Counted from the first letter of the stretch, positions 42,586-47,550 are shown. The stretch: 64,000 nucleotides of DNA from SAR202 cluster bacterium Io17-Chloro-G2 (GCA_002816875.1 MUCP01000016.1:125-64124), one strand, 5' to 3'. The notes: generated by a model not told the origin, from the sequence alone. Program-made: numbers and translations.

Positions 42586-45420
42586 ATGGCACAAGCCAAA
42601 GACACGACGTTGCCTCTATTTGGCGCTGACGAAGCAGAGCAACTGGACGATAACGGCGAAAATCCGGCCGGGGGCGGAACGCCGTTGTTGATGCTGATGG
42701 ACGGGCATGCGATGGTGCACCGTTCCTTCCACGCCATTGCGGCGCAGGGAGCTCTCACCGTCTCGGCCACCGGCGAGGATGTCACCGGGGTATTGGGTTT
42801 TACCAACGTGTTTTTGAAGGCGTTGAACGATTGGAAGCCCACCTATTGCGCCATCGCCTTCGACACCCGCGCGCCGACATTCCGGCACCTGCGGTTCGAG
42901 GACTACAAGGCCCAGAGGCCGCCCACGCCCGTGGCGCTGCGCCCCCAATTCGACCGGGTCAAGCAGCTGATGACCGCATTCGGTGTACCGGTGTTCGAGT
43001 TGGACGGCTATGAGGGAGACGATCTGATCGGCACCCTGTCCCGCAGGGCCGAAGACCAGGGAGTGGAAACGGTCATCCTCACGGGAGATCGGGACACATT
43101 CCAGCTTATTTCAGCGCAGGTGCGGGTCGACCTCCATAGCGTCCGGGACCGCAAGGTATACGACGAAACCGAACTGGTAGCCCGGTACTCTGGATTGACT
43201 GCGGCGCAACAGCCGGATTTTAAAGCGCTGTTGGGTGATTCTTCCGACAACATTCCCGGAGTTCCCAAGGTGGGGGAAAAGACTGCGATCAGTCTCCTGA
43301 ATGACTATGGGACTCTGGAAGGTATCTACGAACACCTGGATGAGATCAAGCGCCCCAGCGTCAAAGAGTCCCTGGCGAATAGCCGGGACCTGGCCTTTGA
43401 GAACCGTATCTTGACTACCATCGATCGGGATGCGCCCGTGACATTGGACCTGGATGCCTCCCGCTTCGGTGCATATGACCGTCAGTCAGTGGTGGACTTG
43501 CTGACCGAATTGGAATTCTTTAGTGTGATTCCGCGTTTGCCTTCCCCTGCGTCTGGAGCCGTCACCAATGAATCATTACCCGATGAGAGACCTGCTGAAA
43601 CCGGCCCGGCAGTGGATGTGGACTACCAGGCCGTGCAGACCGAAGAGCAGCTGCAGGCCATGCTAGCTGCGCTGCAGGAAAACCGAGGCTTCTCCTTTGA
43701 CACCGAGACTACCAGCCTGGATGCAATGCAGGCGGACCTGGTGGGACTGAGCTTTTCCATTTCCCCAAACCGGGCCTGGTACGTGCCGGTGGGCCACAAA
43801 GAAGGCCAGCAGCTTCCCATCGAGCATGTTTTGGCTGAGATAAGGCCGTTGATGGAGTCCGAGGATCTGGCAAAATGTGCCCACAACGCTAATTACGACG
43901 TTACCATCCTCGCCAACCATGGCATCATTTGCCGGAACGTGGATTTCGACACCATGATCGCCGCACATTTGCTGGGCAGGTCGCAGTTGGGCCTAAAAAA
44001 CCTGTCACAAGTCGTCTTGGGCCGGGAGATGACCCCGATAAGCCAGCTCATCGGCACGGGACGCAAGCTAATAACCTTTGACCAGGTGGACATCGAACCC
44101 GCGGCCCAGTACGCCGCGGCCGACGCAGACATGACCGGCCAGCTTAGGACTTCCTTCGAAGGGCCCGTCCACGAGCAGGGGTTCGGCAAATTGTTGAACG
44201 AGATGGAAATGCCGTTGACGCCGGTTTTGGTGACCATGCAGCGTCACGGCATCAAGATGGACGCCGGCGTTCTCCACGAGATGTCCCGGGACCTGAACGA
44301 GCAGATGCACCAGGTGGAAATGGACCTCTACCAATCCATCGGCCACACGGTGAATATCAATTCACCCCAACAGCTGAGCGACCTGTTGTTCAAAGAGATC
44401 GGCCTGCCCCATTCCAAGCGGACCAAGACCGGCTATTCCACTGACGCCAACTCCCTGGAAGGGCTAAAAGGGATGCATCCGGTGGTGGACAACATACTGG
44501 AGTACCGGCAGATATCCAAGCTAAAATCGACCTACGTCGATGCCCTGCCGGAGATGATAAATCCCAGAACGGGCCGCATCCACACCAGCTACAACCAGAC
44601 CGGCTCGGCCACGGGGCGCATATCCAGCAGCGACCCGAACTTGCAAAACATACCCATCCGCACCGAGGCGGGCCGTCAGGTGCGCCGGGCCTTCGTGGCC
44701 CAGGACGCGCCGGACTGGTTCCTTTTCTCCGCCGACTACTCCCAGATCGAGTTGCGGGTGCTGGCCCACATGTCCCAGGACCCCGAACTGCTGGATGCGT
44801 TCCGCAGGGGGGAGGACATCCACTCAGCCACTGCCTCCCTGATGTTCGACGTCCCGTTGAACGACGTGAATTCCGACCAGCGGCGCATCGCCAAAGTCCT
44901 GAATTTCGGCGTGATCTACGGACTGTCGGCCCACGGGATATCCCAGCAGACGGAGTTCAGCCGGGAAGAGGGCGCCGGGTTCATAGAGGCCTACTTCAAC
45001 AGGTATCCCGGCATCAGCGGATACCTGGAGAACGTCAAGGACAAGACCAGACAGGACCAATACGTGGAGACGCTGCTGGGCCGCCGCCGCTTGGTGCCCG
45101 AGATCAACGCATCCAACTTCAATGTTCGGGGCGGCGCCGAGCGGATGGCCATAAATATGCCAATTCAAGGCACGGCGGCCGACATCATGAAGCTTGCCAT
45201 GATCAAGGTCCAGCGCCGTCTTGACGAGGGAGACCTAAGGGCCAAGATGCTGCTTCAAGTCCACGACGAGTTGGTCTTTGAGGCTCCGAGAGAGGAGCTT
45301 GAAGCCCTTAAACAATTGGTCTACGACGAAATGCCCTCGGCCTTAGACGCCTATTTGAACTTGGACGTGACGTTGAAAGTAGACGTGAAATGGGGAGACA
45401 CTTGGGGGGACATGGAGTAA
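42586..45420 (+). CDS. polA: DNA polymerase I (5'-3' exo, 3'-5' exo and polymerase domains)
   Basis: GDSSDNIPGVPKVGEKTA, FDTETTSLD, YAAADAD, RRIAKVLNFGVIYG, QVHDELVFE. Confidence 0.97.
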   Translation: MAQAKDTTLPLFGADEAEQLDDNGENPAGGGTPLLMLMDGHAMVHRSFHAIAAQGALTVSATGEDVTGVLGFTNVFLKALNDWKPTYCAIAFDTRAPTFRHLRFEDYKAQRPPTPVALRPQFDRVKQLMTAFGVPVFELDGYEGDDLIGTLSRRAEDQGVETVILTGDRDTFQLISAQVRVDLHSVRDRKVYDETELVARYSGLTAAQQPDFKALLGDSSDNIPGVPKVGEKTAISLLNDYGTLEGIYEHLDEIKRPSVKESLANSRDLAFENRILTTIDRDAPVTLDLDASRFGAYDRQSVVDLLTELEFFSVIPRLPSPASGAVTNESLPDERPAETGPAVDVDYQAVQTEEQLQAMLAALQENRGFSFDTETTSLDAMQADLVGLSFSISPNRAWYVPVGHKEGQQLPIEHVLAEIRPLMESEDLAKCAHNANYDVTILANHGIICRNVDFDTMIAAHLLGRSQLGLKNLSQVVLGREMTPISQLIGTGRKLITFDQVDIEPAAQYAAADADMTGQLRTSFEGPVHEQGFGKLLNEMEMPLTPVLVTMQRHGIKMDAGVLHEMSRDLNEQMHQVEMDLYQSIGHTVNINSPQQLSDLLFKEIGLPHSKRTKTGYSTDANSLEGLKGMHPVVDNILEYRQISKLKSTYVDALPEMINPRTGRIHTSYNQTGSATGRISSSDPNLQNIPIRTEAGRQVRRAFVAQDAPDWFLFSADYSQIELRVLAHMSQDPELLDAFRRGEDIHSATASLMFDVPLNDVNSDQRRIAKVLNFGVIYGLSAHGISQQTEFSREEGAGFIEAYFNRYPGISGYLENVKDKTRQDQYVETLLGRRRLVPEINASNFNVRGGAERMAINMPIQGTAADIMKLAMIKVQRRLDEGDLRAKMLLQVHDELVFEAPREELEALKQLVYDEMPSALDAYLNLDVTLKVDVKWGDTWGDME
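45382..45420 (+). repeat. polA 3'-terminal repeat, copy A (native gene end)
   Basis: gacgtgaaatggggagacacttggggggacatggagtaa. Confidence 0.8.
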
Positions 45421-45467
45421 GACGCACCAACTTGAACACTTTTCGGTTGTGCCCTACTTATCTAACT

Positions 45468-45734
45468 ATGGCTAGAACAATGAAAAAAGTCCAACCCGTT
45501 TTCGTGCAAGTGGGTCCTCAGGGGCGGATAGTCATTCCGGCCCACCTCAGGCGATTACTGCGCATTGAATCCGGAGAGGAATTGCTAGTCAGGGTTGAAG
45601 ACGGGCGCTTGATCTTCGAGAAGCGAGAACGGATATTAGAGCGGGTCAAGTCATGGTTCGCTCAGGTGCCTCCCGAGGTCAGCCTGGCCGATGAATTGAT
45701 CGCCGAGCGCCGCCGAGAAGTTCGTTGGGAATAA
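45468..45734 (+). CDS. vapB: AbrB/MazE/SpoVT-family antitoxin (VapB-like)
   Basis: VGPQGRIVIPAHLRRLLRIESGEELLV (SpoVT-AbrB loop-hinge motif). It overlaps the downstream PIN gene. Confidence 0.75.
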   Translation: MARTMKKVQPVFVQVGPQGRIVIPAHLRRLLRIESGEELLVRVEDGRLIFEKRERILERVKSWFAQVPPEVSLADELIAERRREVRWE

Positions 45735-46635: not shown

Positions 46636-46639
46636 CCTG

Positions 46640-46666
46640 GACCTGAAATGGGGAGACACGGAGTAG
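46640..46666 (+). repeat. polA 3'-terminal repeat, copy C (12-nt internal deletion)
   Basis: gacctgaaatggggagacac|ggagtag: 19/20 identical to copy A, then ggagta. Confidence 0.8.
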
Positions 46667-47550
46667 CGGGCGTGGACCTATTACGTAGCTTGATATTCGT
46701 GCCGGGCAACCGGGCCAACATGTTGGAGAGGGCCAAGGACTTCAAGGCCGACGTCATCATGGTGGACTTGGAAGATTCGGTCCCGCCGGGAGAGAAGGTT
46801 GCGGCCCGGGATATCGCCCGGGAGTGGGTCCCCCAACTGGCCGGTAAAGGCCGGCGGGTGATGGTAAGACTGAACTCCCTGGACACAGGCCTGACCAAAG
46901 ATGAATTGGCCTCCGTCATCGGCCCCCACCTTGCCGGTATAAGCATCGGCAAGGCCGAGACAATCTGGGACCTGCAGGAGATCGACAACCTGATCGGTCC
47001 ACTGGAATCCGCGGCCGGGCTTCCGGCAGGCCAGATCAAGGTCATCCCGTGGATCGAAAACGCCAGGGCTGTCTTGACTGCCTACCAGCTAGCCACCGCC
47101 TCGCCCCGAATCGAAGCCATCGCCTTTGGGGCCGAGGATTACACCGATGACATGGGAGTTCAACGCACCGACACCAGCGAAGAGATCTACTTTGCCCGAG
47201 CCACCGTGGCCGTTGCCGCCAGGGCCGCCAGGGTTGGGTCATTGGACACGCCGTTCGTGGGATTCAGAGACACCGATGGGTTCCGAGCAGACATTGAGGT
47301 CAGCCGGCGGTTGGGATACACGGGCAGGTTCGCCATCCATCCGTCGCAGATCGAGATAATCAACGAATTGTTCGGGCCTTCTCCTGAAGAACTAGACTAT
47401 GCACGGCAGGTGGTAGAAGCGTGGGACCAAGCCGAGGCCCAGGGAAGGGGTTCCCTGTCGATTGATGGCCGTATGATCGACGTCCCGGTGGTCAAGCGCG
47501 CCCAGAACTTATTGGCCCTGGCCGAACGGATCCAGCGGACTGATCGCTGA
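46648..47550 (+). CDS. HpcH/HpaI aldolase / citrate-lyase beta (CitE, malyl-CoA-lyase-like)
   Basis: LRSLIFVPGNRANMLERA...DVIMVDLEDSV...FGAEDY...IHPSQI. ATG 46648 lies inside repeat copy C, so GTG 46672 is an alternative start. Confidence 0.85.
   Translation: MGRHGVAGVDLLRSLIFVPGNRANMLERAKDFKADVIMVDLEDSVPPGEKVAARDIAREWVPQLAGKGRRVMVRLNSLDTGLTKDELASVIGPHLAGISIGKAETIWDLQEIDNLIGPLESAAGLPAGQIKVIPWIENARAVLTAYQLATASPRIEAIAFGAEDYTDDMGVQRTDTSEEIYFARATVAVAARAARVGSLDTPFVGFRDTDGFRADIEVSRRLGYTGRFAIHPSQIEIINELFGPSPEELDYARQVVEAWDQAEAQGRGSLSIDGRMIDVPVVKRAQNLLALAERIQRTDR

Follow-up and report, generated by a model that had tools for sequence, protein, structure and literature searches.

Copies of the end of polA separate small, strain-variable gene units in the polA-citE gap of SAR202-type Dehalococcoidia

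Introduction

How do gene units of less than one kilobase come to be stacked beside an essential gene, each followed by a copy of that gene's end? The question is raised by a 64,000-nt stretch from SAR202 cluster bacterium Io17-Chloro-G2, an SAR202-type Dehalococcoidia genome (MUCP01000016.1:125-64124; we will call the whole stretch the window). The end of polA, which encodes DNA polymerase I, is found there three times in the same orientation: at the end of polA itself (copy A), after a vapBC toxin-antitoxin pair (copy B), and after retro, a gene for a putative retropepsin-fold protease (copy C). An earlier note on this DNA had proposed that two cassettes without recombinases were inserted one after the other at an attachment (att) site that overlaps the end of polA. 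By comparing related genomes, we show that the duplication is real, that the units vary independently among close relatives, and that one deletion occurred by recombination between two remnants of the polA end. We read the polA-citE gap of this SAR202/Dehalococcoidia lineage as a hot spot of recombination, occupied by small units in a strain-variable array.

SAR202 bacteria and related Dehalococcoidia are abundant and hard to culture, and they have few recognizable mobile elements, yet their genomes are strain-variable. The polA-citE locus is a well-sampled case of a small variable region that has been built and remodeled beside an essential gene. Units of 0.5-0.8 kb are gained, lost, and reordered among genomes that are only 12-17% apart in the flanking genes, and the displaced gene ends form a readable record of these gains and losses. 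If ordinary recombination suffices to explain the array, then toxin-antitoxin and defense-type genes need no integrase to build up at safe sites; if instead the array depends on a dedicated recombinase, it would be a new minimal cassette system.

Results and Discussion

The three copies of the polA end are real

Downstream of polA, the gene order is vapB, vapC, retro, a citE-like gene, and folB. The window's proteins match the Pfam families MazE/AbrB antitoxin, PIN, Asp_protease_2, and HpcH/HpaI. We number the polA-citE loci of related genomes with an L; L161 is an ENA scaffold that is identical to the window. The features of the region are:

42586-45420, plus strand: polA, DNA polymerase I, 944 amino acids; an intact open reading frame (ORF), with the Pfam domains of the identical L161 gene
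45373-45420, plus strand: copy A, the working last 48 nt of polA, TTGAAAGTAGACGTGAAATGGGGAGACACTTGGGGGGACATGGAGTAA
45421-45467, plus strand: left end of the vapBC unit, from comparison of the sequence after the polA stop with L184, L185, L166, L081, L179, and L180
45468-45734, plus strand: vapB, AbrB/MazE-type antitoxin, 88 amino acids from ATG 45468 (PF04014, E = 5e-8)
45725-46153, plus strand: vapC, PIN-domain toxin (PF01850, E = 3e-8)
46149-46196, plus strand: copy B, a decayed duplicate of the polA end
46197-46260, plus strand: spacer 5' of retro, colinear with the spacer from the polA stop to retro in L163, L167, and L171
46261-46635, plus strand: retro, predicted retropepsin-fold aspartyl protease, 124 amino acids, with a DTGA motif (PF13650/PF13975; 326 homologs)
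46635-46666, plus strand: copy C, a polA-end duplicate that has two deletions (6 nt and 12 nt), GCCTG^GACCTGAAATGGGGAGACAC^GGAGTAG
46672-47550, plus strand: citE-like gene for an HpcH/HpaI lyase, start moved to GTG 46672 (PF03328, E = 1e-44)

The 3' terminus of polA reads ...CTGAAAGTAGACGTGAAATGGGGAGACACTTGGGGGGACATGGAGTAA, and the C-terminus that it encodes, ...LKVDVKWGDTWGDME*, is kept across all relatives (80 C-termini compared). Copy A contains an internal 12-nt tandem (WGDT/WGDM). The repeats that the earlier note quoted are present. In copy C, 46640-46659 matches 45382-45401 at 19 of 20 positions, and GGAGTAG follows past a clean 12-nt gap. Copy B holds an exact 13/13 match, GGGACATGGAGTA, plus AAATGGGG; across the alignable part, it agrees with the window's own polA end at 25 of 32 positions, with one gap, and includes the TAG stop. 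The vapC stop (TGA, 46151-46153) falls among the first bases of copy B. Judged from relatives, the repeat's true extent is about 48-50 nt (CTGAAAGTAGACGTGAAATGGGG...GGAGTAG), and the coordinates of copies A, B, and C are given accordingly.

These repeats are short, and the polA end is G-rich with an internal tandem. Also, there is a fourth partial match of 14/15 nt (GGGAGGACATGGAGT, 45936-45950) inside vapC, which codes for the conserved residues REDMES and which we treat as a coincidence. Nevertheless, we put the probability that the repeats arose by chance or by misassembly close to nil. In local alignments, the last 45 nt of polA score 35 against copy C and 31 against copy B, while the best score among 186 other 1.3-kb chunks of the window, on both strands, is 22. 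With a first-order Markov null, p = 0.0005 for scores of 31 or above and p < 0.0005 for scores of 35 or above. A second, independent assembler reproduced every junction: Logan contigs from the source run span 45006-46478 and 46458-47229, agree with the window at every position, and have an even depth of about 73-79x. (Identical pieces are also found in two runs of a different study, but they span only the A junction.) Finally, orthologous copies are found at the same positions in L166, L184, L185, L163, L167, and L171, and copy B of L166 is identical to that genome's own polA end at 46 of 48 positions. Chance or artefact is already refuted.

In the Logan contigs of three runs, which drop rare variants, we found only the occupied form and no credible A-B joint, B-C joint, or empty site. 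One joint in these contigs (“skips 1136”) was disregarded because one of its sides is just 21 nt and its depth is 3.6x.

The units vary independently among close relatives

Scanning species-representative genomes with the polA C-terminus led to metagenome-assembled genomes (MAGs) of SAR202/Dehalococcoidia, and scanning metagenomes with the same query gave only six useful relatives. A search with the retro protein (326 homologs) reached much closer genomes, at 88-92% identity. The close relatives are listed by the identity of their polA C-terminus to the window's and by their layout:

L167-170: 96% identical; polA-retro-citE
L163-165: 92% identical; polA-retro-citE
L171-176: 92% identical; polA-DUF2283-retro-vapBC-citE
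L185: 91% identical; polA-vapBC-citE
L166: 88% identical; layout as in the window
L184: only 65 amino acids of polA are on the contig, so identity is not comparable; layout as in the window

In trees of the 3' part of polA and of the 5' part of citE, the window, L167, L185, L184, L171, and L163 fall in one subclade, with 12-17% nucleotide divergence. L166 lies outside of this subclade, with 22-26% divergence.

Nearly every unit in the subclade is followed by a remnant of the polA end. With the remnants included, the order is vapBC-B-retro-C in the window, L184, and L166; retro-C in L163-165 and L167-170; vapBC and one remnant in L185; and DUF2283-remnant-retro-vapBC-remnant in L171-176. Direct repeats of the 3' end of polA thus lie at both boundaries of the elements (A/B and B/C, and also in L166 and L184). 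Both types of subclade remnant, the one after vapBC and the one after retro, start at polA -48 to -51, within about 3 nt of -48, and run to the stop. The earlier note had suggested looking for presence/absence polymorphism, and close relatives contain it: vapBC with retro, retro only, vapBC only, and DUF2283 with retro and vapBC. The data support the view that the three copies bracket two units that were added serially beside polA, and each unit is independently present or absent in close relatives.

Copy B, the spacer, and retro of the window are colinear with the real polA end, the spacer, and retro of L163 and L167, so vapBC and one 48-nt polA end amount to a clean presence/absence difference. 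L185 has only one remnant, and this is a chimera. On the left, it adjoins the vapC stop directly and carries the B-specific GAAAGCAGG (the GAAAGCA/GCG change); on the right, it carries the 12-nt deletion and citE junction that are common to copy C of the window and copy C of L184. Since the remnant is B on the left and C on the right, retro was lost from L185 by recombination between B and C.

Remnants carry lineage-specific variants of polA (as in L166, G[C/T]CGGCAC, and in L177), which implies that they derive from resident or conspecific DNA. We also considered a foreign origin for copy B, but copy B is about equally similar to the polA ends of other lineages and to the window's own, so the comparison is uninformative. 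L166 also has an 11-nt exact piece of the polA end (AGACGTGAAAA, 4958-4968) in the space from copy B to retro, perhaps left by another lost unit.

The polA-citE gap in more distant relatives

The polA-citE-folB synteny is present in 47 of the scanned MAGs and in more than 60 relatives overall, and the distance from polA to citE ranges from 4 nt to 2.8 kb. The gap may be empty, or it may contain one to three retro genes, vapBC, DUF2283 with or without a DUF4258-like gene, methyltransferase/endonuclease pairs, PLD-like genes, a NIPSNAP-sized ORF, or a copy of IS630. Tandem copies of retro are only 54-78% identical and come in no fixed order, and the spacers between them are 23-161 nt, with no conserved motif by eye. 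(When we surveyed 1.15 Mb of related loci for short-range direct repeats, we found chiefly tandem paralogs.)

In many lineages, vapBC and retro have occupied this gap for a long time. All 13 places that were returned for six relatives of vapC are in the polA-citE gap, as are all nine of the closer loci in which the upstream side of the retro match is visible (the loci from the retro protein search and L083/L086). Many of the alleles with only vapBC or only retro have no remnant. When we searched distant relatives with Smith-Waterman alignments and nhmmer profiles, we found no polA-end remnant except in L019, with a marginal case in L035.

The remnants in other lineages have other lengths. The remnant in L177 is 79 nt and is 92% identical to its own polA end. 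In L019, the stretch from retro1 to retro2 consists of 87 nt of the citE 5' end, about 40 nt, at least 82 nt of the polA 3' end, and other cargo, in this order; the complete citE comes after retro2. In L018, retro copies 2 and 3 are separated by 21 nt of the citE start together with a copy of the upstream spacer. Such junctions are those expected of unequal, tandem-type joins.

Other cargo is also seen in the gap. L022, L036, L038, and L031 contain DNA methyltransferases paired with putative endonucleases (similar to restriction-modification systems), and L019 and L023 contain a small ORF with a PLD/HKD-like nuclease. Given this varied cargo, the gap behaves as a small hot spot for defense and toxin-antitoxin genes. 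In L030 (6913-8934), the second of two tandem retro copies is interrupted by an IS630-family transposase; the first ~133 nt of copy 2 are 92% identical to copy 1, and the rest is only 67% identical. This pattern suggests gene conversion between the tandem retro copies.

Neither a recombinase nor integron-type features were found

Among about 50 ORFs in the 64-kb window, none match an integrase, a resolvase, or a transposase, and the window contains no tRNA. In the inserts of about 60 relatives, which we inspected by ORF and by precomputed Pfam lists, the only recombinase gene is the IS630 transposase in L030; in particular, no cognate tyrosine or serine recombinase was found in these occupied polA-citE loci or in the window. 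The units do lack recombinases of their own, as the earlier note had it.

The note had also likened the units to integron cassettes, a reading that is only partly supported. The window has no intI, attI, or Pc promoter with the array, whose flanks are polA and citE. When regions A, B, and C were folded as single-stranded DNA, on both strands, there was no attC-like hairpin (z scores of -0.97 to +1.85 relative to shuffled sequences) and no fold signal of an attC-like or dif-like structure. Inspection of the 45421-46639 insert by eye gave no terminal inverted repeats. Also, the cassettes stay in the polA-citE gap. As for the proposed att site, the remnants do start near -48. But the repeats vary in length between lineages (a left edge at -48 to -51 in the subclade, 79 nt in L177, and at least 82 nt in L019), and an att site does not predict the citE 5' fragments at the L018 and L019 junctions.

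A similar layout at comM

The earlier note described a similar layout at comM, and we see it as well. After comM (36825-38348, minus strand), there is a broken ORF that resembles DUF4258 by motif, with no Pfam match, and then an intact DUF2283 gene (36362-36589). Next is a copy of the 3' end of comM (36100-36305), which is 206 nt, encodes 75% amino acid identity over residues 445-504, and has an 8-amino-acid insertion. About 2.2 kb beyond is a 67-81-nt copy of an internal segment of comM, residues 348-374 (33794-33875). These displaced remnants of comM are of the same type as those at polA, with different lengths and unrelated repeats. We found no evidence that one cassette moved between comM and polA: by inspection, the DUF2283 at comM and the DUF2283 at the polA locus of L172 belong to different subfamilies.

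How the array might have formed

The explanation we prefer, to which we assign about an even chance, is that the array was built by microhomology joins that duplicated the end of an essential gene, followed by unequal homologous recombination between the copies. Copies B and C would be displaced and decaying former ends of polA, which were left behind when new DNA joined beside polA and polA was kept intact. The first step would be a rare, illegitimate join, guided by microhomology: an incoming or misaligned allele would be fused by its end to a site some 48-50 nt ahead of the stop of polA, with the result that the polA end is duplicated. In the second step, unequal homologous recombination between the polA-end copies would add, delete, and reorder units without a dedicated recombinase. 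This could happen within one chromosome or with conspecific DNA that is anchored in polA or citE. We infer the order of events, with retro and copy C older and vapBC and copy B younger, and likewise the enzymes involved.

We prefer generic recombination because we found no recombinase and no hairpin; because the length of the duplication varies, with breakpoints that are not fixed between lineages (about 48-50, 79, or at least 82 nt); because citE 5' fragments lie at junctions; because the remnants are lineage-specific and some alleles are free of remnants; and because comM shows the same with unrelated repeats. Another reason is the remnant-free allele L180, in which the context of the vapC stop, cggTAAAGTA, has microhomology to polA CTAAAAGTA, exactly at the B joint.

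A mechanism of this type, homology-facilitated illegitimate recombination (HFIR), is known from Acinetobacter and pneumococcus. A long anchor in polA or citE together with a microhomology join would explain additive insertion and variable lengths, and HFIR or microhomology duplication with unequal crossing-over would also explain the citE 5' fragments, the lineage-specific repeats, and the deletion between repeats.

Several observations weigh against this explanation. The vapBC and retro remnants require separate joins, yet both start within about 3 nt of -48. With random breakpoints, such a shared start would be a coincidence of roughly 5-10%, whereas a fixed crossover site would produce it; HFIR and microhomology joins are general mechanisms, not a described cassette system, and they do not predict the reuse of polA -48 to -51. 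A repeat of 48 nt is short for RecA-type recombination. L166 has the same layout although it lies outside the subclade, and the 46/48 identity of its copy B requires a recent repeat event or gene conversion. In L171, there is no secure remnant between retro and vapBC. Finally, sliding-window identities to L166, L167, L171, and L163 gave no mosaic signal of donor segments in polA.

Site-specific accretion, which is close to the model of the earlier note and which we consider possible but would not bet on, would account for some of these points. It would be akin to the ssrA islands of Dehalococcoides or to accretion at tRNA islands, with cargo of less than a kilobase. The last ~48 nt of polA would be an att site, and the units would be tiny cassettes without integrases that are mobilizable in cis and carry their own copy of the site; a tyrosine or serine recombinase that is encoded elsewhere or has since been lost would insert them at polA or at any remnant. 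Remnants that run from -48 to -51 through the polA stop fit a crossover at the left edge of the identity block that rebuilds the gene. Furthermore, units occur in either order and are lost cleanly, all of the relatives of vapBC and retro that we examined are at this one locus, and L166 repeats the layout with near-identical copies. There is also a precedent in tycheposons, whose older elements are moved inward by successive integrations (10.1101/2020.12.28.424599). But neither the 64-kb window nor roughly 60 occupied loci contain a recombinase gene, and the site has no dyad symmetry or hairpin. Nor does site-specific accretion sit well with repeats of 79 and at least 82 nt in other lineages, with citE 5' fragments at the L018 and L019 junctions, or with the many vapBC-only and retro-only alleles that lack a remnant. 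The remnants carry lineage-specific polA variants instead of a single shared element sequence, comM would require a second and different att site, and no relatives were found on viral contigs.

Tentatively, and with some doubt, one can imagine that SAR202-type Dehalococcoidia have an integron-like system without a linked integrase. An unrecognized recombinase, encoded in trans, would use the ~48-nt ends of essential genes (polA and perhaps comM) as att sites, and it would stack, shuffle, and excise sub-kilobase cassettes (toxin-antitoxin pairs, the retropepsin-fold gene, and DUF2283), with one copy of the gene end for each. Elements that lack integrases and have att remnants are known.

We think it improbable that the array is what remains of one larger island or prophage at the polA 3' end, from which the integrase and most of the cargo were deleted. 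The toxin-antitoxin pair would have survived because such pairs resist loss. A direct repeat of a gene's 3' end with a toxin-antitoxin module is the classic residue of a decayed island, and the vapBC of the window does look degenerate, with a substitution of a catalytic residue and a degraded operator. However, none of more than 60 relatives has a large island or a fragment of an integrase at this locus. Also, the two units vary independently, each with its own remnant, and vapBC and retro have long resided in the gap in many lineages.

Comparison to known systems

The closest precedent is the ssrA islands of Dehalococcoides, from the same bacterial class; tycheposon accretion is similar. The ssrA islands are tandem elements whose boundary is a 20-bp copy of the 3' end of ssrA. 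A serine recombinase module (DsiB/DsiA) is present in most of them, and some that lack it are regarded as cis-mobilizable or fixed (McMurdie et al. 2011, PMC3146451). Like the polA array, they form a tandem stack 3' of a single-copy essential gene and have direct repeats of the gene's end. Unlike the polA array, they are kilobases long, with a fixed 20-bp repeat, a defined insertion point, and a recombinase module. The units at polA are 0.49-0.78 kb, their target is protein-coding, and their repeat is about 48 nt, with other lengths in other lineages; we found no recombinase.

In the tycheposons of Prochlorococcus, successive integrations move older elements inward and leave partial copies of the target (10.1101/2020.12.28.424599). 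Partial copies of the target are also what we see at polA. But what defines a tycheposon is its tyrosine recombinase and its tRNA or tmRNA target, and the window has no such recombinase gene and no tRNA.

Two other systems share small, stacked units that lack their own recombinase. Toxin-antitoxin cassettes are common in chromosomal integrons, where recombinase-less cassettes are stacked proximal to the promoter. Integron cassettes resemble the polA array in being single genes or toxin-antitoxin pairs. In contrast, the polA array has no intI, attI, or attC-like palindrome, its repeats are the coding end of a neighboring gene, and its vapBC apparently has its own operator and promoter. The pdif (Xer) modules of Acinetobacter plasmids are small and recombinase-less, often encode toxin-antitoxin pairs, are bounded by short repeats, and are shuffled among replicons; pdif sites are 28-bp XerC/XerD sites with dyad symmetry and alternating orientation. 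In contrast, the polA-end copies are direct repeats that derive from coding sequence and have no signal of secondary structure. (We set them apart from pdif sites by folding and by origin.) Overall, we regard the polA array as a case of accretion with gene-end remnants, in which the units are unusually small and recombinase-less and the target is protein-coding.

Gene starts near the repeats

Because AAATGGGG in the polA end provides an in-frame ATG, gene callers overextended both citE (to ATG 46648) and vapB (to ATG 45390). The start codons of citE in all of the relatives align with GTG 46672, while ATG 46648, within copy C, is not supported by any of them. GTG 46672 is therefore the likely start of citE, as the earlier note had suspected. 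After copy C, there are 5 nt and then the citE start; some relatives with empty sites have an equally tight junction from stop to start. The GGAG of copy C probably serves as the ribosome-binding site of citE. Similarly, the 114-amino-acid vapB ORF is an artefact, since its start, ATG 45390, belongs to the polA end, and vapB presumably starts at ATG 45468 or ATG 45480. For vapC, the start is probably TTG 45743, which gives a protein of 136 amino acids and matches homologs of 136 amino acids. More broadly, polA-end repeats are a source of false N-terminal extensions in gene calls, and they could be used as markers for strain typing in metagenomes.

The cargo: VapBC and a putative retropepsin-fold protease

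The arrangement of a small AbrB/MazE-fold antitoxin gene with a PIN gene downstream identifies the first unit as VapBC; the vapB stop overlaps the region of the vapC start. In relatives, the counterpart of 45421-45467 contains a conserved palindrome that resembles a vapB operator/promoter, TGGCAC..N..GTGCCATAAT, and the vapBC unit appears to carry its own operator and promoter. In the window, the palindrome and a -10-like box are degraded. Also, in aligned translations, the window's VapC has Asn where the PIN domain should have its first catalytic Asp (YVLNASAL, with the YVLN codons at 45785-45796), as compared to YVLDASAL in 7 relatives, so the set of catalytic acidic residues is not intact. 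Given this substitution and the degraded palindrome, the window's VapC may be inactive and the vapBC module may be decaying.

The retro protein has the active-site motif LIDTGAT. Its match to PF13650, at 24.5 bits, is just over the 24.3-bit cutoff, and a sequence search against PDB found nothing significant, so we searched by fold. The AlphaFold model (pLDDT of 86.5) has 75 Foldseek matches in PDB with E of 1e-3 or below, with retroviral proteases on top and TM-scores of 0.56-0.71. Based on this model, retro is predicted to be a single-lobe aspartyl protease with a retropepsin fold (clan AA). Comparison of stop positions with relatives shows that the ancestral stop of retro, after ...YLL, was mutated, which added 5 codons. 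PADLOC had no defense-system matches for the cassette proteins, and viral contigs contained neither relatives of retro nor the polA-end motif.

A second, divergent retropepsin-like gene lies beside argH (50365-50754, minus strand; 129 amino acids; PF13650, E = 1e-6). It is 27% identical to the retro beside polA. Its position is conserved in L163, and in L177 the same position is held by an unannotated ORF of 127 amino acids.

Another repeat in the window

The window also contains two intergenic copies of a ~205-nt element (2448-2654 and 51679-51884), which are 83-86% identical. The element has no Rfam match. Its copies have terminal inverted repeats of ~18 nt (AGGGCAATCGCGTCTTAA...TTAAAACGCGATTGCCCT) and internal hairpins with compensatory changes between the two copies, and it looks like either a miniature inverted-repeat transposable element or a structured RNA.

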